From contig CAOJUB010000003.1 of NCBI GenBank assembly GCA_948443805.1, positions 69,832 through 133,831 of the forward strand: a stretch of DNA of 64,000 bases, given 5' to 3'. Both the position numbers and the translations under genes were made by a program. A model generated the notes under the pieces. It saw only the letters and a program-made list of their open reading frames with translations, made no database searches and was not told the DNA's origin. This document shows, piece after piece, positions 6,121-58,304 of this stretch. The stretch is from an uncultured Clostridia bacterium (GTDB lineage: Bacteria; Bacillota; Clostridia; Oscillospirales; UBA644). Position 1 is the stretch's first letter, and every line of letters starts with the position of its first letter.

Positions 6121-6768
6121 ATGAAAATAGCGCCTTCGCTTCTGGCAAGCGATTTTAACTCGCTCTGCGATGAAATACAGAGCGTTTCCTGCGCGGATCT
6201 TCTTCATCTAGACGTGATGGATGGAATTTTTGTCCCGAATATCTCTTTCGGTCTTCCGGTGATTTCTTCTATCCGGAAAAAGAGCGATATGCTTTTTGAC
6301 GTGCATCTGATGATTACTGAGCCGGAGCGGTATCTTTCCGAATTTGCAGCGGCCGGCGCCGATTATATCACGGTTCATCAGGAAAGCACCGAACGAGCTG
6401 CGGAATGTCTGAAAACCATCCGGTCTCTGGGAAAAAAGGCGGGGCTTTCGGTCAAACCCTTAACGCCGGTGCAGGAGATTTTTCCGCTGCTTCCGCTTTG
6501 CGATCTGGTTTTGGTTATGACGGTTGAACCGGGTTTCGGCGGACAGAAATTGATTCCGGACTGTCTGGAAAAGGTCCGGCTGCTGGCCGACCGGAAAAAA
6601 GAGACAGGCCTTTCATTTTTGATTGAAGCCGACGGCGGTATCGGCGGGGAGAACCTTTCGTATGCCGCTTCTTTCGGTCTGGAGGCTGCGGTGATGGGGT
6701 CGGCACTGTTCCGTTTTGCACCGGAGCGCCGCGCTGAAGAGATTCATAAATTGCAGGCAATCGGCTGA
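6121..6768 (+). CDS. rpe: Ribulose-phosphate 3-epimerase
   Basis: IAPSLLASDF...LHLDVMDGIFVPNISFG...VEPGFGGQ motifs. 215 aa. Confidence 0.92.
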   Translation: MKIAPSLLASDFNSLCDEIQSVSCADLLHLDVMDGIFVPNISFGLPVISSIRKKSDMLFDVHLMITEPERYLSEFAAAGADYITVHQESTERAAECLKTIRSLGKKAGLSVKPLTPVQEIFPLLPLCDLVLVMTVEPGFGGQKLIPDCLEKVRLLADRKKETGLSFLIEADGGIGGENLSYAASFGLEAAVMGSALFRFAPERRAEEIHKLQAIG

Positions 6769-44317: not shown

Positions 44318-44355
44318 AAAAAAAACGGCGCGGAAATTTCCGCGCCGCTGTTTTT
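44318..44355. terminator. Bidirectional terminator
   Basis: A8, then the perfect 22-nt palindrome CGGCGCGGAAATTTCCGCGCCG (44326-47), then CTG and T5. Confidence 0.8.
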
Positions 44356-45595
44356 ATGAACCGGACGGTTCTTCGCTGCTTTTGCCTAAAAGGTGGGCGA
44401 TATACTGCCGTGCCGTACGGCCGGAAAGACCGCCTTTATGCAGTCCCCAAATTCTTGCGCCGTTGAGAAGTTCGGTTTCTTCCAAAGTGATTCCCGCTTT
44501 TTTTGCAAGATGTTTTACAATATCGTAATAATCCTTTTGCAGCGGTTTGATAAAGCAGATGGAAAGACCGAACCGGTCGGCCAGAGACAGTTTTTCCTGA
44601 ACCGAATCGGAACGGTGCAGTTCCTGGTCGGCCTGCTGCTTGTCGGCATAGGTTTCTTTTACAATATGGCGGCGGTTAGAGGTTGCATAGATCAGGATAT
44701 TTTTCGGGGAAGGGCAGAGTCCGCCCTCGATGACGGCTTTGAAATATTTGTATTCCACTTCGAATTCTTCAAAGGAAAGGTCATCGATATAAAGAATGAA
44801 AAAATAATTTCGTTTGGACAGTTCTTCCGCTATTTTTTTTAGGTGGACAAACGCGTGCCGGGTAATTTCGACCATCCGCAGTCCCTGCTCTCCGTATTCG
44901 GTAACGAGCGCGCGGACGCAGGTTGATTTTCCGGTTCCGCTGTCGCCGAAAAGCAGCGTGTTGTTCCCGCCCCGTCCGGCGAGAAAGCCCTCGGTGTTTT
45001 CTGTCAGTTGTTTTTTTTGTTCCGGATAACCCCACAGGTCGGAAAGGCGGGTTGGCTCCATGCGTTTGATCGGCATCATTTTTGCCGATTCGCTGTTGCC
45101 ATCGATATAAAAAGCGGTGTAAAGACCGAATTTTCCGGCTCCATGGTTCAGATAGAACGCCGTAACGGCATCGGCAAAGGCGGCGGCGCTGCGGCACTGA
45201 TCCAGCGTTTGCACGAAGTCTCGGATTTTCTGCGTTGCCTGGTTGGTTGTCATTCGCTTTTGCGTGAAAGACAAAAGCGGTTTCAGTTCCTTTTCAAAAG
45301 CGCTTTCCGAAAACGGAAAGGTATATAGCTGATACAGTTCCCGGAAATCCCGGATAGCCAGCGGACGCAGATCCTCGGCCCGGTCTTTTCTTTCACAGGC
45401 GAGGGTATACGGGTTTTCGTCTAAGATCATACCGGCGGCGATAATTCCGTGCCATAGGTTGCCGTCGATTCCGTACCGGGCGGCATAAGAAAGAAGTTCT
45501 GGTAGCAGGAGAAGGGCGTCCGGGTCGTTTTGCCGGATTTTTTCCCGCAGCGAAGACAGCGTCTGAAGAATTTTGGATTTTCCGTAAAATATCAT
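44354..45595 (-). CDS. DUF815 AAA-type ATP-binding protein
   Basis: GDSGTGKST P-loop, FILYIDDLSFEEFEVEYKYFKAVIEGG and IYATSNRRH blocks characteristic of DUF815. Confidence 0.8.
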   Translation of the reverse strand: MIFYGKSKILQTLSSLREKIRQNDPDALLLLPELLSYAARYGIDGNLWHGIIAAGMILDENPYTLACERKDRAEDLRPLAIRDFRELYQLYTFPFSESAFEKELKPLLSFTQKRMTTNQATQKIRDFVQTLDQCRSAAAFADAVTAFYLNHGAGKFGLYTAFYIDGNSESAKMMPIKRMEPTRLSDLWGYPEQKKQLTENTEGFLAGRGGNNTLLFGDSGTGKSTCVRALVTEYGEQGLRMVEITRHAFVHLKKIAEELSKRNYFFILYIDDLSFEEFEVEYKYFKAVIEGGLCPSPKNILIYATSNRRHIVKETYADKQQADQELHRSDSVQEKLSLADRFGLSICFIKPLQKDYYDIVKHLAKKAGITLEETELLNGARIWGLHKGGLSGRTARQYIAHLLGKSSEEPSGS

Positions 45596-45662
45596 ATTTC
45601 TTACTCTTTTCTTTTTCGGTCGGGTTTGGTCAGGTTTCGTTCCCGGCTCCTTTTTCTTCCTT

Positions 45663-45692
45663 ATTATACTACTTCTTCCTGCGGTTTGTCAA
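45663..45692 (-). promoter_or_regulatory. Candidate promoter of the DUF815 gene
   Basis: On the minus strand: TTGACA (45692-87), 18-nt spacer, TATAAT (45668-63). Confidence 0.55.
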
Positions 45693-45797
45693 TCGGTATT
45701 TTTACAGGGAAAAAGAGAATGTTTTGTTTAAAATTACCATAAAAAAAACAAAAATTAAATATTATCTATAAAAAAGGCAGAAATACCGCCGGTATGC

Positions 45798-45826
45798 TTG
45801 AAATGTCACAATTACTGTGTTATAAT
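45798..45826 (+). promoter_or_regulatory. Sigma-A-type promoter of the ilv-leu operon
   Basis: TTGAAA (45798-803), 17-nt spacer ending in TGT, TATAAT (45821-26). Confidence 0.7.
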
Positions 45827-45876
45827 ATACCCAACAAACTTCAGCGTGATAAAGTCGCTGGACAAAGAGGTTACGT

Positions 45877-45966
45877 ATGAGCTTTTCTTTTGCAGTGCTT
45901 GGCATACTTATTAGCATTATTAGCCTAGTCGTCGTGATTAGAAATAATGCCGAAAGTTGTGCCTGA
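45877..45966 (+). CDS. Candidate ilv-leu leader peptide (29 aa, MSFSFAVLGILISIISLVVVIRNNAESCA)
   Basis: AAAGAGG SD 6 nt before the ATG. 12 of the 15 residues at positions 7-21 are Ile, Leu or Val. It lies between the operon promoter and a terminator. It is below the ORF-track size cutoff. Confidence 0.6.
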   Translation: MSFSFAVLGILISIISLVVVIRNNAESCA

Positions 45967-46016
45967 AATTGCAAAGTAACAGTTCATTCGTGGAAACGGT
46001 GAAAAAATAGCTTTAC

Positions 46017-46052
46017 AAACCTATGGTATGACTTTCATCCATAGGTTTTTTT
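46017..46052 (+). terminator. Attenuator terminator upstream of ilvB
   Basis: AAACCTATGG(T)ATGA pairs with TCATCCATAGGTTT, 14 bp with one bulge and a CTT loop. The T-run extends to 46052. It ends about 50 nt before the ilvB start. Confidence 0.75.
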
Positions 46053-46103
46053 GTTGCTTTGGACCGGGACGGATTCCCGGAATGAAAAGGAGAGTGAACG
46101 GAT

Positions 46104-47765
46104 ATGAAAATGACAGGCTCGCAAATTCTGATAGAAACGCTTATCGAGCAGGGAACCGACGTTGTTTTCGGCTATCCCGGCGGGCAGGTTTTGAATATTT
46201 ATGATGAATTGTATCTGAATTCCGATCGGATCAGTCATGTTCTTACCGCGCATGAACAGGGAGCGGCGCATGCAGCCGACGGATATGCCAGGGCGACCGG
46301 AAAGGTCGGTGTTGTGATTGCGACTTCCGGTCCGGGCGCGACCAATCTGGTAACGGGTATTGCCACGGCGTACCTGGATTCGGTTCCCATGGTTGCCATT
46401 ACCGGCAACGTACCGACCGGGCTTCTGGGACGGGACAGTTTTCAGGAAGTGGATATTGTCGGCATTACCATGCCGGTGACAAAGCATAATTATATGGTAA
46501 AAAATGTCGCCGATCTGGCTGATACCATCCGGGAGGCTTTTGCCATTGCCAAATCGGGAAGGCCCGGCCCAGTATTGATCGATATTCCGAAAGACGTGCA
46601 GACGGCACAGACGGAATATTGTGCAGGGGAGCCTGCGCCGGAAGCAGAAACGCCGGATATTTCAGACGATGTTCTGAAACGGGCTGCGGAAATGATCAAT
46701 CAGTCGGAAAAACCGTATATTTACTGCGGCGGCGGCGCGATCCGCAGCGGCTGCGGAGAAGAAATCCTTGCAATTGCCGATAAGATTGATGCGCCGATCG
46801 GTTCCAGCCTGATGGGGCTTTCCGCAATTCCGACCGCCTCGGAAAGGGCGCTTGGCATGACCGGAATGCACGGCACCTATACGTCTTCTATGGCGAAGGC
46901 CGAGTCGGATCTGATTCTTGCCTTCGGCGTCCGGTTCAGCGACCGGGCAACCGGCGATAAGAGCCGTTATGCCGAGCATGCAAAAATTATTCATGTCGAT
47001 ATCGACGATGCGGAACTGAATAAAAATATCCCGGCGGATCTGGGAATTCACGGCGATATGAAAAAGATACTTTCCCGCCTCTGCGCGATGGTGGAAAAAT
47101 CCGAGAAACCGGATTGGCACGCGCATATCGCTTCCTTGCGGGAATATGAAAAGAAAAATGTTTTTTACGGTTCGGGCAAGCTTACGCCGAAAACGGTAAT
47201 CGATATGGTTTCCGCCGAGGCTTCGGAGAAAACGCCGATTGCCACCGACGTCGGGCAGCACCAGATGTGGACGGCTCAGTTCTATAATTTCAGAACCCCC
47301 CGCACCTTTATTTCCAGCGGCGGTCTTGGAACGATGGGGTTTGGAATGGGCGCCGCGATCGGCGCTTCGGTTGCAACGGGAGAACGGACGGTTCTGGTAA
47401 CCGGCGACGGCAGTTTCGGCATGAATCTTAATGAATTGGCGACGGCCGTTTCTCAGCGTATCCCGCTGGTTGTTGTTCTGATGAACAACGGCGTTCTGGG
47501 GATGGTCCGGCAGTGGCAGACAATCTTTTTCAACAAGCATTATGCGCAGACAACCCTTGAACGGAAGACCGATTTTACGGCGCTTGCCAAAGCTTTCGGC
47601 GCCGAGGGGCTGACGGCCGATACGCCGGAAACCTTTGCCGCTGCCCTGAAAACCGCTTTTTCAACCGACGGACCGGTGGTGATTGACTGCCGGATTGATC
47701 AGGATGAGCGGGTTCTTCCGATGATTCCGCCGAACAGTACGGTAGACAAGATGATTATTGATTAA
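46104..47765 (+). CDS. ilvB: Acetolactate synthase large subunit (biosynthetic)
   Basis: TPP enzyme with GYPGG, the GPGATNLVTGIA block and GLGTMGFGMGAAIGA...GDGSFGMN. 553 aa. Confidence 0.93.
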   Translation: MKMTGSQILIETLIEQGTDVVFGYPGGQVLNIYDELYLNSDRISHVLTAHEQGAAHAADGYARATGKVGVVIATSGPGATNLVTGIATAYLDSVPMVAITGNVPTGLLGRDSFQEVDIVGITMPVTKHNYMVKNVADLADTIREAFAIAKSGRPGPVLIDIPKDVQTAQTEYCAGEPAPEAETPDISDDVLKRAAEMINQSEKPYIYCGGGAIRSGCGEEILAIADKIDAPIGSSLMGLSAIPTASERALGMTGMHGTYTSSMAKAESDLILAFGVRFSDRATGDKSRYAEHAKIIHVDIDDAELNKNIPADLGIHGDMKKILSRLCAMVEKSEKPDWHAHIASLREYEKKNVFYGSGKLTPKTVIDMVSAEASEKTPIATDVGQHQMWTAQFYNFRTPRTFISSGGLGTMGFGMGAAIGASVATGERTVLVTGDGSFGMNLNELATAVSQRIPLVVVLMNNGVLGMVRQWQTIFFNKHYAQTTLERKTDFTALAKAFGAEGLTADTPETFAAALKTAFSTDGPVVIDCRIDQDERVLPMIPPNSTVDKMIID

Positions 47766-51138: not shown

Positions 51139-52635
51139 ATGAGACGAATCAAAATTTTTGACACAACATTGCGGGACGGGGAACAGTCGCCCGGCTGCAC
51201 GATGAATCTTCAGGAGAAAATTGAAATTGCCAAGGCGCTTGAAAAGCTGAAGGTTGACGTCATTGAAGCCGGTTTTGCCATTTCTTCTCCGGGCGATTTC
51301 GAGTCGGTGAAGACCATTGCGGAAACGGTTCGGGACTGTTCGGTTGCTTCGCTTGCCCGGCTGACCGAAAAAGATATTGACGCGGCCTATGAGGCGGTGA
51401 AAGGCGGAGCCGATCCCCGGATTCATGTTTTTATTGCGACTTCTCCGGTACATATGGAATATAAACTGAAAATGTCTCCCGAACAGGTTCTGGAAAAAAC
51501 GCGCGCGGCGGTTGCCTATGCGAAAAAATACTGTTCGAATATTGAGTTCTCCGCGGAGGACGCCACACGGAGCGATCCGGAATTTTTGGCGAAAGTCGTT
51601 TCGGCGGCGATTCAGAGCGGGGCTACCGTTATTAATGTTCCCGATACGGTGGGGTATACCACGCCGCAGGAAATGCAGGAACGGATTGCCTATCTGATTG
51701 CCAACGTGGAAAACAGCGACCGGGTGGAATTTTCGGTGCACTGCCATAACGATCTCGGCATGGCGGTGGCGAACTCCCTCGGCGGTGTGAGAGGCGGCGC
51801 TCTGCAGATTGAATGTACCGTCAACGGAATCGGAGAACGTGCGGGCAACACATCGCTGGAAGAAGTGGTAATGGCCATGCATACGCGCCCGGATTTGTAT
51901 CCGAATATGCCGCGGATCGAAACGAAAAGGATTTATAAAACCAGCAAAATGGTGTATCACACGATCGGACAGACGCCTTCTCCGAACAAACCGATTGTCG
52001 GTGAAAATGCTTTTGCGCATGAATCGGGGATTCATCAGCATGGCGTTCTTGCCAATAAAAATACTTATGAAATTATGACGCCGGAATCGGTCGGAATTCA
52101 GGAAAAACAGTTGGTATTGGGCAAACATTCGGGAAAACATGCATTTGAGGCGCGTCTTTCCGAACTGGGGTATGATCTTTCTCCCGATGAACTGGCCGAG
52201 TGTTTTGTCCGTTTCAAGGATCTGTGCGATAAGAAAAAAATGGTCAACGACCGTGATGTGGAAGCGCTGGTTCATAATAAGGCGGTGACTTCCAGCAAAT
52301 ATACGCTGGACCGTTTCGACGTTCATGCCGGAAATGTAACGACGGCAACCTGTACGATTCGTCTGAAAAAAGACGGAGAAGTGCTGGAAGAGGTTTCTCT
52401 CGGCGACGGGCCGATCGATGCGGCTTACAATGCGATCGATAAAATTATTCTTCCGCCCGCGCATACGCTGGATAAATATTCGATCAACGCGGTTTCAGAA
52501 GGCAAAGATACTCTGGGCGAGGTTATTGTCAAGCTGAAGTCCGAAAGCGGAGTTGTGAACGGCAGAGGGCTTTCCACCGATATTATCGAGGCGAGCATTC
52601 TCGCGTATCTGAACGCGGTTGATAAACTTCTTTGA
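51139..52635 (+). CDS. leuA: 2-isopropylmalate synthase
   Basis: IFDTTLRDGEQSPG, HCHNDLGMAVANSL, and a C-terminal LeuA dimerisation/regulatory domain. ATG 51139 follows GAAAGGAGG. Confidence 0.9.
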   Translation: MRRIKIFDTTLRDGEQSPGCTMNLQEKIEIAKALEKLKVDVIEAGFAISSPGDFESVKTIAETVRDCSVASLARLTEKDIDAAYEAVKGGADPRIHVFIATSPVHMEYKLKMSPEQVLEKTRAAVAYAKKYCSNIEFSAEDATRSDPEFLAKVVSAAIQSGATVINVPDTVGYTTPQEMQERIAYLIANVENSDRVEFSVHCHNDLGMAVANSLGGVRGGALQIECTVNGIGERAGNTSLEEVVMAMHTRPDLYPNMPRIETKRIYKTSKMVYHTIGQTPSPNKPIVGENAFAHESGIHQHGVLANKNTYEIMTPESVGIQEKQLVLGKHSGKHAFEARLSELGYDLSPDELAECFVRFKDLCDKKKMVNDRDVEALVHNKAVTSSKYTLDRFDVHAGNVTTATCTIRLKKDGEVLEEVSLGDGPIDAAYNAIDKIILPPAHTLDKYSINAVSEGKDTLGEVIVKLKSESGVVNGRGLSTDIIEASILAYLNAVDKLL

Positions 52636-52649
52636 GAGGATCGGGAAGT

Positions 52650-54215
52650 ATGAGGAAGATAGAAATATTTGATTCTACCCTGCGGGACGGTTCGCAGGGG
52701 GAGGGCATTTCCTTTTCGGTGCAGGATAAGCTGAATATCGTCAAAAAGCTGGATGAATTCGGCGTGACCTATATCGAGGCGGGAAATCCCGGTTCCAATC
52801 CGAAAGATCTTCGTTTTTTTGAAGCGTTGAAAGACGTTTCGCTCAAACAGGCGAAAATCTGTGCGTTCGGCAGCACGGCGCGGAGCAATATTCCGGTAGA
52901 GGAAGATAAAAACCTAATCAGCCTGTTATCGGCGGAAACGCCCTGCGTTTCGGTTTTCGGCAAATCGTGGGATCTGCATGTGACGGAAATTCTGAAAATT
53001 TCGCTGGAAGAAAATCTCCGGATTGTAACAGAAACGCTTGCCTATCTGAAAAGCAAAGGCAAAGAAGTGATTTTTGATGCGGAGCATTTTTTCGACGGAT
53101 ACAAGGCAAATCCTGAATATACGATGAAGGTCCTCGGCGCGGCGGTTTCCGGCGGGGCAGAGGTTCTCTGCCTGTGCGATACCAATGGCGGATGTATTCC
53201 GGATTTTATCGGAAAGGTGACCTCTGAGGTGTGCAAAGCATTTCCTCAGTTGCGGGTGGGCATCCACTGTCATGACGATATCGGTTGTGCTACGGCAAAT
53301 TCGGTTGTAGCGGTTCAGAACGGTGCGGTTCAGGTTCAGGGGACTTTTATCGGTTTCGGCGAACGCTGCGGCAATGCCGATCTGAGTACTATCATGCCTA
53401 CGCTGGCATTTAAATGCGGGTTTCCGCTCGCGGTCGATTTTTCAAATCTCAAACAGACGGCAAGAACGATAGGAGAGATATCCAACGTCCGGATTCACCG
53501 GAATCATCCCTATATCGGAAAAAGCGCGTTTGCCCATAAAGGCGGCATGCATATCGACGGGGTTCAGAAGCTTCCTGCTTCTTTTGAGCATATCGATCCC
53601 GCTCTTGTCGGAAACGAACGGAAATTTCTGCTCAGCGAGGTTTCGGGAAGAGGCACGGTGCTTCCCCGGATTCAGAAATTTCTGCCCTTTCTTACCAAAC
53701 AGTCTCCCGAGACCGGAATGATTACCGAGGAACTGAAAAAACAGGAATATAACGGTTATCAGTATGAGGGTGCGGACGCTTCGTTTGAACTGTTCGTCAA
53801 AAAACAGCTCGGTCTCTGGACGCCTCATTTTCATGTGATTATGTATAAGGTAATCGACGATTTTCCGGCGCCCGACGGCGAACAGCAGTCGAACGCGATG
53901 GTGAAAATCGAGGTTGAGGGGAAAACCGAACTGACCTGCGGCAGCGGAAACGGTCCGGTAAATGCGCTGGACAGCGCTCTGCGTACGGCGATTGGGATGT
54001 TTTATCCGGAAATCAGCGATATGCACCTGCTGGATTATAAAGTCCGCGTGATCGATACCGGAAAGGCGACCGACGCAAAAACCCGTGTTTTAATTGAATC
54101 TGCCGACATGGACTCGTCTTTTACGACGATCGGCGTATCAACCGACATCATAGAAGCAAGTTTTATGGCGCTGATGGATTCGTTTGAATATAAATTATCG
54201 AAAAAGGAGTTGTAA
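52650..54215 (+). CDS. cimA: Citramalate synthase (LeuA paralogue, CimA type)
   Basis: [35 protein letters not shown]. ~520 aa with a LeuA_dimer-like C-terminus. The DGSQ/GISFS variant is typical of the TIGR00977-type citramalate synthases. Confidence 0.78.
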
Positions 54216-57102: not shown

Positions 57103-58173
57103 TTGCTGAATATCAGGATTGAAAAAACAACCGAACCCAAACAAAAACCTGCCGCCGGGCAGAAGCTTGGTTTCGGGAAGATTTTTACCGACCATATGTT
57201 TGTCATGAACTATACCGAAGGCAAGGGATGGTATGATGCGAGAGTGGTTCCTTTTTCAAGAATCTCGCTTTCTCCCGCAGCCATGGTTTTCCATTACGGA
57301 CAGGAAATGTTCGAGGGACTGAAGGCGTACCGGGGGGCGGACGGCAAGGCGTATCTTTTCCGTCCGGATATGAATGCGAAAAGAACCAATGCGACAAACC
57401 GGAGGCTTTGTATTCCTGAAATCCCCGAAGAGGATTTTGTTCAGGCGGTGAAAACCGTTGTCGACGTTGACAGCGACTGGATTCCGCGGGAAGAAGGCAC
57501 ATCGCTGTATATCCGGCCATTTATCATTGCAACCGATGAATTTCTCGGCGTAGCGCCTTCACAGAATTATCTGTTTATGGTGATTCTTTCTCCGAGCGGC
57601 GCTTACTATGAAAACGGTCTGGCGCCGGTCGGCATTTGGATTGAGGACGAGTATGTGCGGGCCGTTAAGGGCGGTATCGGTTTTGCAAAAACCGGCGGAA
57701 ATTATGCGGCAAGCCTGATTGCTCAGGTTAAAGCGCATGACGAAGGTTTTTCTCAGGTTCTCTGGCTGGACGGCGTTGAACGCAAATATATCGAAGAAGT
57801 TGGCGCGATGAATATCTTCTTTAAAATCAACGGCACGGTGGTAACGCCGATGCTGAACGGAAGTATTCTTCCCGGCATTACCCGGGATTCCGTTCTGCAT
57901 CTCTGCCGCGAATGGGGAATCCCTACCGAAGAACGGAGAATCTCGGTCGAAGAGCTTCTTCTTGCTCAGCAGAACGGAACGCTGGAAGAGGTTTTCGGCA
58001 CCGGAACGGCGGCGGTGATCTCGCCTGTCGGGAAACTTCGTTTTAAAGACGATGTCATGACGATCCACGATGGCAAGATCGGTCCTCTCAGCCAGAAACT
58101 GTATGACGCCGTTACCGGAATTCAGCGCGGCGGAGCGGAGGATCCGTTCGGCTGGCGGGTATTGGTAAAATAG
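57103..58173 (+). CDS. ilvE: Branched-chain amino acid aminotransferase
   Basis: 356-aa class IV aminotransferase with FEGLKAYR and GTGTAAVISPV. TTG start. Confidence 0.88.
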   Translation: MLNIRIEKTTEPKQKPAAGQKLGFGKIFTDHMFVMNYTEGKGWYDARVVPFSRISLSPAAMVFHYGQEMFEGLKAYRGADGKAYLFRPDMNAKRTNATNRRLCIPEIPEEDFVQAVKTVVDVDSDWIPREEGTSLYIRPFIIATDEFLGVAPSQNYLFMVILSPSGAYYENGLAPVGIWIEDEYVRAVKGGIGFAKTGGNYAASLIAQVKAHDEGFSQVLWLDGVERKYIEEVGAMNIFFKINGTVVTPMLNGSILPGITRDSVLHLCREWGIPTEERRISVEELLLAQQNGTLEEVFGTGTAAVISPVGKLRFKDDVMTIHDGKIGPLSQKLYDAVTGIQRGGAEDPFGWRVLVK

Positions 58174-58210
58174 TATTGTTTTGTTGCTTTACAACACTGT
58201 AAAAACTGAA

Positions 58211-58246
58211 AAAACCCACAGTTCAAAAAGAACTGTGGGTTTTTTA
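58211..58246 (+). terminator. Intrinsic terminator closing the ilv-leu operon
   Basis: AACCCACAGTTC (58213-24) pairs with GAACTGTGGGTT (58230-41), AAAAA loop, then a T-run. Confidence 0.85.
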
Positions 58247-58304
58247 TTTTTTCCGGTTTCGGGTCGGGAATTTTAATCTTTTTGTGAATTATCAGGCGGA
58301 GGGG

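Follow-up and report, generated by a model that had tools for sequence, protein, structure and literature searches.

What controls ilv-leu operon transcription in an uncultured Clostridia bacterium, where a short open reading frame (ORF) rich in isoleucine, leucine and valine codons and an intrinsic terminator stand between the promoter and ilvB? Our analysis of the window (the whole 64,000-nt stretch of contig CAOJUB010000003.1) suggests that this region is very probably a classical ribosome-mediated (leader-peptide) attenuator of ilvBNCD-leuA-leuCDB, predicted from its sequence and from modelled RNA folding to respond to charged tRNA-Ile, tRNA-Leu and tRNA-Val. This reading draws on which elements the sequence contains and how they are arranged, on calculated folding energies, and on what is conserved and covaries among relatives. 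An earlier note on this DNA had proposed that the ilv-leu operon is controlled by attenuation. The parts on which it drew, namely a promoter, a Shine-Dalgarno (SD)-preceded ORF of 29 codons, 12 branched-chain amino acids among the 15 residues 7–21, a hairpin with a T-run, and ilvB, were all found where it had placed them, and the proposal itself gained support from antiterminator geometry, from conservation with compensatory changes and from the exclusion of known Rfam classes. The elements of the leader, in order of position, are as follows.

45798–45826 (+): sigma-70-type promoter, TTGAAA at 45798–45803, 17-nt spacer, TATAAT at 45821–45826
45866–45870 (+): SD sequence for the leader ORF, AGAGG, with 6 nt between it and the ATG
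45871–45993 (+): long imperfect hairpin ("1:2", anti-antiterminator, probable pause structure), which encloses the whole leader ORF
45877–45966 (+): leader ORF, 29 codons plus UGA (45964–45966), ATG at 45877, encoding MSFSFAVLGILISIISLVVVIRNNAESCA
45895–45939 (+): regulatory codon run, codons 7–21, 12 of 15 for Ile (5), Leu (3) or Val (4)
45952–45963 (+): antiterminator 5' strand (region 2 core), GAAAGUUGUGCC, codons 26–29, the last four sense codons before the stop
46017–46052 (+): intrinsic terminator ("3:4"), stem 46017–46048 plus U7 tract 46046–46052
46025–46036 (+): antiterminator 3' strand (region 3 core), GGUAUGACUUUC, made up of the upper 5' arm of the terminator, its loop and 2 nt at the start of its 3' arm
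46086–46094 (+): SD sequence of ilvB, AAAGGAGAG
46104–47765 (+): ilvB, ATG at 46104, assigned by Pfam, first gene of the operon

The leader ORF, which lies between the promoter and ilvB, is rich in codons for those amino acids that the operon serves to make. In a scan of both strands of the 64-kb window with ATG, GTG and TTG starts, it was the only ORF of 10–60 amino acids with at least nine Ile, Leu or Val residues among any 12 in a row. The promoter of the leader and the operon has 11/12 consensus positions and a TG extension of the −10 box (45818–45819) in our promoter scan, and transcription probably starts at about 45833–45834, about 7 nt past the −10 box. The same scan detected no promoter-like site between the terminator and ilvB (46052–46104), indicating that ilvB depends on read-through.

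The terminator hairpin begins 50 nt past the leader stop codon and contains a 10-bp lower stem, a 1-nt bulge (U), a 4-bp upper stem and the loop CUU (−15.0 to −15.6 kcal/mol). A simple terminator scan did not list the hairpin at 46017–46048, which fits the criteria of that scan (no bulge permitted, loop of at most 8 nt). The antiterminator had not been identifiable by eye in the earlier note. It was found by folding the leader with the ribosome footprint masked and by folding only the RNA 3' of the stalled ribosome: 45952–45963 pairs with 46025–46036 in a 12-bp duplex of −16.3 kcal/mol (p = 0.008; 500 dinucleotide shuffles in which the 5' segment was scrambled gave −9.5 ± 2.3), which sequesters the top of the terminator. 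When the RNA is free from 45950 on, the two folds are nearly equal in energy (−25.3 with the antiterminator, −25.9 with the terminator), and the antiterminator is finished while the terminator 3' arm is still to be transcribed. With the ribosome at the stop codon, masked folding leaves the terminator fold alone.

By computed geometry, a ribosome whose A site occupies any Ile, Leu or Val codon as far as I21 (45937) shields RNA up to about 45950, leaving 45952–45963 free, and a ribosome at the UGA covers all 14 nt of 45951–45964 (the strand and its flanks). In the minimum free energy (MFE) fold, codons 9–12 (45901–45912) pair with 11 of the 14 nt of 45951–45964, that is, the 12-nt strand and one flanking nt per side. 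The conserved upper part of the long hairpin is formed by GCAUUAUU (45914–45921) and AAUAAUGC (45943–45950), with its apex at Val codons. In these computations the geometry of the leader matches the textbook attenuation model exactly.

From this arrangement we infer that the ORF is translated, that transcription terminates at the U tract and that the choice responds to branched-chain amino acids. Once transcription starts, a ribosome would load on the leader ORF. If charged tRNA-Ile, tRNA-Leu and tRNA-Val are plentiful, it would reach the UGA at 45964, where its footprint would mask 45952–45963; this strand could then not pair with 46025–46036, the terminator at 46017–46052 would form and the polymerase would stop before ilvB. 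If any one of these tRNAs is scarce, the ribosome would stall within codons 7–21 with its leading edge at about 45950 or earlier, and would occupy the long hairpin's 5' arm with its codons 9–12, which normally sequester 45952–45963. The freed strand would pair with 46025–46036 once the latter is transcribed, before the terminator 3' arm exists, so that the terminator would be pre-empted and the operon transcribed. With no translation, the hairpin at 45871–45993 and the terminator would form and transcription would terminate (super-attenuation).

Is this arrangement conserved? We collected 160 loci with IlvB relatives, 80 of them in GTDB genomes and the other 80 in metagenomes; 153 were usable. 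An Ile/Leu/Val-rich mini-ORF (ATG start, at least 9/12 Ile, Leu or Val, within 400 nt upstream of ilvB) was detected in 20 of the 153 loci, compared with 1/153 when the reverse complement was scanned and 0/153 after shuffling, and the enrichment was specific to reading frame and strand. In the Lachnospiraceae locus L036, ilvB follows ilvD instead of being the first gene and lacks a leader of its own; should many of the 153 loci have this gene order, the share of ilvB genes at the head of an operon that carry such a leader would be higher than 20/153.

The layout was found in Oscillospiraceae, Christensenella, Oribacterium sinus and Oligosphaera (Lentisphaerota). A common plan is shared by L019, L084/L085, L020 (Oribacterium sinus, leader at 2836–2981), L021, L087, L088, L091, L097, L003, L016 (Christensenella), L012, L001, L089 and L018. 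It begins with an SD-like sequence and an ORF with an Ile/Leu/Val run; a conserved hairpin, GCAUUAU(C/U)...(G/A)AUAAUGC, has Ile-Ile codons as its 5' strand and Val codons at its apex. The 3' end of the ORF (consensus GCGUUGUGCUG) is complementary to the terminator top (CAGCAUAACGC), and the terminator stands immediately before ilvB. The same logic is carried by other sequences in L011, L081, L082, L052, L070 and L064. Leader peptides vary in length and sequence among the relatives, whereas the Ile/Leu/Val enrichment and the RNA-level motifs are kept.

In 21 leaders, we searched for the best pairing between the segment after the run (ending at the terminator) and the terminator top; the best helix reached p ≤ 0.05 against shuffles in 15 of them. 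The antiterminator 5' strand lies over the ORF 3' end or the stop codon in most of the 21 leaders, and in the unconstrained fold of most relatives it is paired with upstream codons of the ORF. Where the helix differs in sequence, it does so on both strands. The pair is GAAAGUUGUGCC / GGUAUGACUUUC in the window, GGGUUUUGCCG / CGGCGGAACCC in L018 (fully compensated), GGUUU(U)GCC / GGCAAACC in L016, and UUGUGUAU-GC / GCAAUACACAA in L003.

L018 is Oligosphaera ethanolica DSM 24202, a member of Lentisphaerota, and its leader (2798–2958, ORF with a GTG start, MFISLANLIIVIILSVIVLLGVSALGVLPEPT) places the architecture outside Bacillota, a hint that the ilv operon may have moved horizontally along with its attenuator. 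The leader of L089 (1257–1399) starts with TTG and reads MFNRLFSNNVVVVSVVVGCACWRCAEPR; its regulatory codons are all for Val, of which there are seven, a single Leu lies outside the run and Ile is missing, which suggests lineage-specific tuning to a single amino acid.

Covariation was analyzed with a covariance model (R1) built from eight relatives, with the window left out and only the upper hairpin and the terminator as structure input. R1 recovers the core family at E values of 1e-11 to 1e-17 and adds L089 at 3e-7; weak but correctly placed matches were obtained in L012, L018, L016, L001 and L003. In the window, it aligned end to end with 45913–46052, the expected place, at 15.8 bits and E = 0.0037 (501-nt local search with filters off); upper hairpin, GUUGUGC and terminator each fell into register. 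The window leader shows all architectural features of the R1 family, and its sequence match to R1 is weak. A second weak match (19.9 bits, E = 0.72) at 58158–58247 overlaps the 3' end of an ORF at 57103–58173 downstream of leuB; instead of another leader, this may be a terminator hairpin.

The antiterminator helix was outside the R1 structure, and the alignment was not fitted to it. On this alignment, 79.5% of its cells are paired, versus 28–60% with slid partners; 9 of its 11 pairs have changed on both sides, and its covariation score was reached by none of 500 shuffles. The helices to which R1 was fitted are 89.5% paired, with compensatory changes in 20/21 pairs, counts that are biased by the fitting. 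The terminators of the relatives, at the same position, have such changes in 11/12 pairs, again on an alignment fitted to the model. The counts for the P1 helix are weaker evidence than those for the antiterminator because they rest on a model-fitted alignment. MAFFT alignments of the leaders (A1–A3) misalign the 5' hairpin, whose loop lengths vary. Overall, related genomes retain four features upstream of ilvB, with compensatory changes: mini-ORF, Ile/Leu/Val run, terminator and antiterminator.

Could the leader instead be an RNA switch that works independently of translation, such as a riboswitch, a tRNA-sensing element or a terminator governed by an RNA-binding protein, with the ORF as a structural by-product? 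Its structure is strong: the 228-nt leader folds at −73.1 kcal/mol, compared with −49.5 ± 4.6 in dinucleotide shuffles (z = −5.16, 0/200), and the conserved motifs GCAUUAU ... AUAAUGC and GCGUUGUGCUG could be a binding site. Moreover, T-boxes or ppGpp riboswitches control ilvB in other Firmicutes (PMC10272879). The tRNA-Leu T-box of Bacillus subtilis ilv-leu and the ppGpp riboswitch (ykkC subtype 2a) share the position of the window element and the output predicted for it, a choice between terminator and antiterminator before ilv genes, but they sense uncharged tRNA or ppGpp directly, without translation, unlike the mode proposed here.

The searches for known RNA classes speak against such a switch. 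Rfam 15 gave no match over the window at gathering thresholds. At E ≤ 10, the region 45600–46200 yielded only noise (snoRNA, miRNA and ctRNA models, E > 0.6) and no T-box (RF00230), ppGpp/ykkC or leader family, in agreement with the earlier note, which had seen no T-box here. Rfam searches over the leaders of relatives found nothing in 20 at gathering thresholds and nothing in 11 at E ≤ 5. As a positive control, the Rfam T-box model does find T-boxes in L011 and L012, away from the ilvB leader. These are bona fide T-box leaders (L011:656–906, + strand; L012:18–231, − strand; 105 bits) about 2 kb from the ilvB leaders, indicating that these lineages use both T-boxes and leader peptides. In addition, SD, start, frame and stop are maintained in divergent sequences of differing length, the Ile/Leu/Val enrichment follows frame and strand, the stop codon keeps its place beside the antiterminator strand, and the fold is one long hairpin, not a junction resembling a ligand pocket. 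We therefore regard a translation-independent switch as very improbable.

Several points weigh against the attenuator. R1 did not report the window leader in a 620-kb search, and the homology of the leader to the family core is weak. The closest IlvB relative in scans of genomes and metagenome contigs has 63% identity, and with no relative above this value a fine-scale comparison of the window's own leader is precluded. In the helix search, 6 of the 21 leaders fell short of p ≤ 0.05, and shuffle p-values across relatives are not independent since the sequences are related. The footprint edges used in the geometry (+12/13 nt) are generic values. The window antiterminator overlaps the top of the terminator only, so that the lower 8 bp (46017–46024 with 46041–46048) are blocked only topologically, their pairing requiring a pseudoknot.

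Some of this would suit a constitutive partial terminator or an mRNA-stability element, in which the ORF may be translated and termination is uncoupled from amino-acid supply. The antiterminator of the window has 12 bp and takes only the upper terminator, the two folds are nearly equal in energy, and the case for attenuation is a computational one. However, the precise geometry of stall sites, footprint, stop codon and antiterminator strand recurs in relatives with compensatory changes, and an enrichment for exactly the end products of the operon would otherwise be hard to explain; such an element appears very improbable. It is also very improbable that the mini-ORF stands alone as a gene encoding a small hydrophobic membrane peptide with its own terminator, incidentally placed before an ilvB expressed from elsewhere: the peptide does resemble a single transmembrane helix, its sole Pfam echo is a sub-threshold LPXTG-anchor hydrophobic segment and the peptides of relatives are hydrophobic, but the 51 nt between terminator and ilvB hold no promoter-like site, the terminator ends just 13–21 nt before ilvB in many relatives, conservation lies in the Ile/Leu/Val enrichment and RNA motifs instead of peptide length or sequence, one relative has a Val-only run, and covariation of the ORF 3' end with the terminator loop would be meaningless for a membrane peptide.

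If leader-peptide attenuation is taken as the mechanism, to what family does the element belong? The weak R1 score and the lack of a report in the large search indicate that it is either a divergent member of the R1 family or a close analogue. We consider it reasonably likely that the window carries a divergent member of an uncatalogued RNA/upstream ORF (uORF) family of ilvB attenuators, present in several orders of Clostridia and, presumably via ilv operon transfer, in Lentisphaerota. In this family, Ile-Ile and Val codons would build the pause/anti-antiterminator hairpin, and lineage-specific leaders, such as the Val-only one of L089, may be tuned to different amino acids. It is probably a new family of an already known kind of attenuation.

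The enterobacterial ilvL and ivbL leaders are the textbook cases of this mechanism, and leader-peptide attenuation of ilv genes has also been predicted for Lactococcus and Streptococcus. Like the window, the enterobacterial ilvGMEDA (IlvL) and ilvBN (IvbL) operons have a short SD-preceded ORF rich in Ile, Leu and Val codons. Both have four RNA segments, which form either 1:2 with the 3:4 terminator or the 2:3 antiterminator. In each case the antiterminator is blocked when the ribosome sits at the stop codon and becomes free when the ribosome stalls (in the window, by computed geometry). On the other hand, the window leader has no sequence relationship to IlvL or IvbL; its ORF lies wholly inside one hairpin of about 120 nt, and its antiterminator 5' strand consists of the last four sense codons. 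The resemblance to Escherichia coli IlvL and IvbL suggested in the earlier note holds for composition but does not extend to the peptide family. Neither Pfam PF08049 (IlvB_leader) nor NCBIfam NF007579 (IvbL) matched the window peptide, and with these models the peptides of two relatives reached 10 bits against cut-offs of 25 and 60 (E 0.6–0.7).

Leader-peptide control with genetic evidence has been described for the attenuator peptide of ilvD in Staphylococcus aureus (Kaiser et al. 2018, PMC5794164) and for ilv-leu attenuation by Rli60 of Listeria monocytogenes (Brenner et al. 2018, PMC5864092). As in the window, these are Firmicute ilv-leu operons with an Ile/Leu-rich leader ORF, which is translated in both species, a terminator and an antiterminator. 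However, both organisms belong to Bacilli and not Clostridia, the first gene is ilvD and not ilvB, and the leader sequences are unrelated. The antiterminator proposed for S. aureus sequesters the poly-U tract, whereas that of the window takes the top of the hairpin. The leaders of S. aureus and Listeria act together with CodY; in contrast, no CodY box was found near the window promoter within 3 mismatches, and the attenuator may therefore be the main specific control of the operon, with further regulators possible.

The earlier note did not know such attenuation as the textbook mechanism for Clostridia-type ilv operons. We found no description of a clostridial ilvB leader peptide in the searchable literature, but older comparative-genomics surveys outside it, such as Vitreschak et al. 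2004 and Lopatovskaya et al. 2010, may hold a prior prediction. Considering the two examples from Bacilli, however, the mechanism is less unusual for Gram-positive bacteria than the note implied.

Conserved RNAs upstream of ilvB have also been re-interpreted as uORFs rich in branched-chain codons elsewhere: the Corynebacterium ilvB-II motif, or C. glutamicum ilvBNC leader, is described as a uORF attenuator, and the ilvB-OMG and Leptospira ilvB motifs are proposed ones (PMC10272879). The window shares this position and codon content. The ilvB-OMG motif was considered as the identity of the clostridial family and rejected, its published alignment being unrelated (PMC10272879 supplement). The ilvB-OMG and Leptospira alignments are GC-rich or otherwise unrelated and come from other phyla (e.g., AGUACCCUCAUCCUCUGGCC...), with no resemblance to the window or its relatives. 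Rfam 15, which may not hold models of these three motifs, gave no match to any of them here.

Other mini-ORFs and repeats were encountered near ilvB. In L060 (Brachyspira pilosicoli) and L144, AT-rich mini-ORFs ending in Ile/Leu runs, e.g., MKSFFKHFNQTNISIILLSLIIIL, lie about 90–225 nt upstream of ilvB and, judging from their sequence, may be analogous attenuators in Spirochaetes. A Lachnospiraceae mini-ORF of the pattern M[FY]HLKLL.ADL..LL.KAI (MYHLKLLWADLSLLLRKAI-type) upstream of ilvB, suspected of being a T-box/Leu leader, was discarded: in L036 (2720–2780) it is an out-of-frame reading of the conserved ilvD 3' end. This was established for L036, and similar ORFs were seen in L023, L035, L037, L038, L044 and L047. 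L021 contains a repeated palindromic element of about 105 nt (1293–1400 and 6266–6374) that scores with the mir-633 model on either strand (E 3e-7 to 2e-4). A microRNA is improbable here; the element is more likely repetitive extragenic DNA or a miniature mobile element.

Two further features flank the leader ORF and its promoter.

45840–45862 (+): 5'-proximal stem-loop UUCAGCG ... CGCUGGA, 7 bp, in the MFE fold, directly after the predicted transcription start
44354–45595 (−): gene for a DUF815 AAA ATPase (Pfam), the upstream neighbour, with its own divergent promoter

The stem-loop is possibly an mRNA-stabilising 5' hairpin, and by eye a hairpin upstream of the leader ORF is apparently also present in L070. 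The divergent promoter of the DUF815 gene (45663–45692, − strand) is a perfect 12/12 consensus match, with TTGACA, an 18-nt spacer and TATAAT. A terminator-like hairpin with a T-run (45776–45790, − strand) lies just upstream of the −35 box of the leader promoter in a spacer that is otherwise very AT-rich. An antisense ORF at 45762–45974 (70 amino acids, TTG start) matched no family and was treated as spurious.

Between the terminator and the ilvB SD, a small hairpin CCGGGA-cggau-UCCCGG (46064–46080, + strand) contains a GGGAC motif. This motif lies 8–13 nt past the terminator in the window leader, L011, L081 and L070, and 46 nt past it in L084. It occurs in 5 of the 21 leaders, compared with about 0.7 matches expected, and is missing from most core family members.

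The operon itself has, by Pfam, the order ilvB-ilvN-ilvC-ilvD-leuA-(second leuA-like gene)-leuC-leuD-leuB. The second LeuA-like gene, directly after leuA (52632–54215, 527 amino acids), has HMGL-like and LeuA_dimer domains. It is plausibly a citramalate synthase (cimA), which would let isoleucine be made independently of threonine.

The branched-chain amino acids that gut Clostridia make are of importance to host metabolism and to cross-feeding in the community, and how these lineages, mostly uncultured, regulate their synthesis has hardly been characterised. The attenuator reveals no new principle, as the mechanism is already known, and is useful for annotation and for understanding control in gut Clostridia. 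A conserved leader-peptide attenuator would fill an annotation gap, that of mini-ORFs and RNA elements unrecognised by Rfam, Pfam and NCBIfam, and would extend ribosome-mediated ilv attenuation from Proteobacteria, Actinobacteria and Bacilli to Clostridia. It would also give a compact, predictable switch responsive to Ile, Leu and Val. The attenuator can be tested in two carriers that are in culture, Oribacterium sinus DSM 17245 and Oligosphaera ethanolica DSM 24202. If the leaders do form an uncatalogued family, ribosome-mediated attenuation, and not T-box or ppGpp sensing, would be a major form of branched-chain amino-acid control in gut Clostridia.

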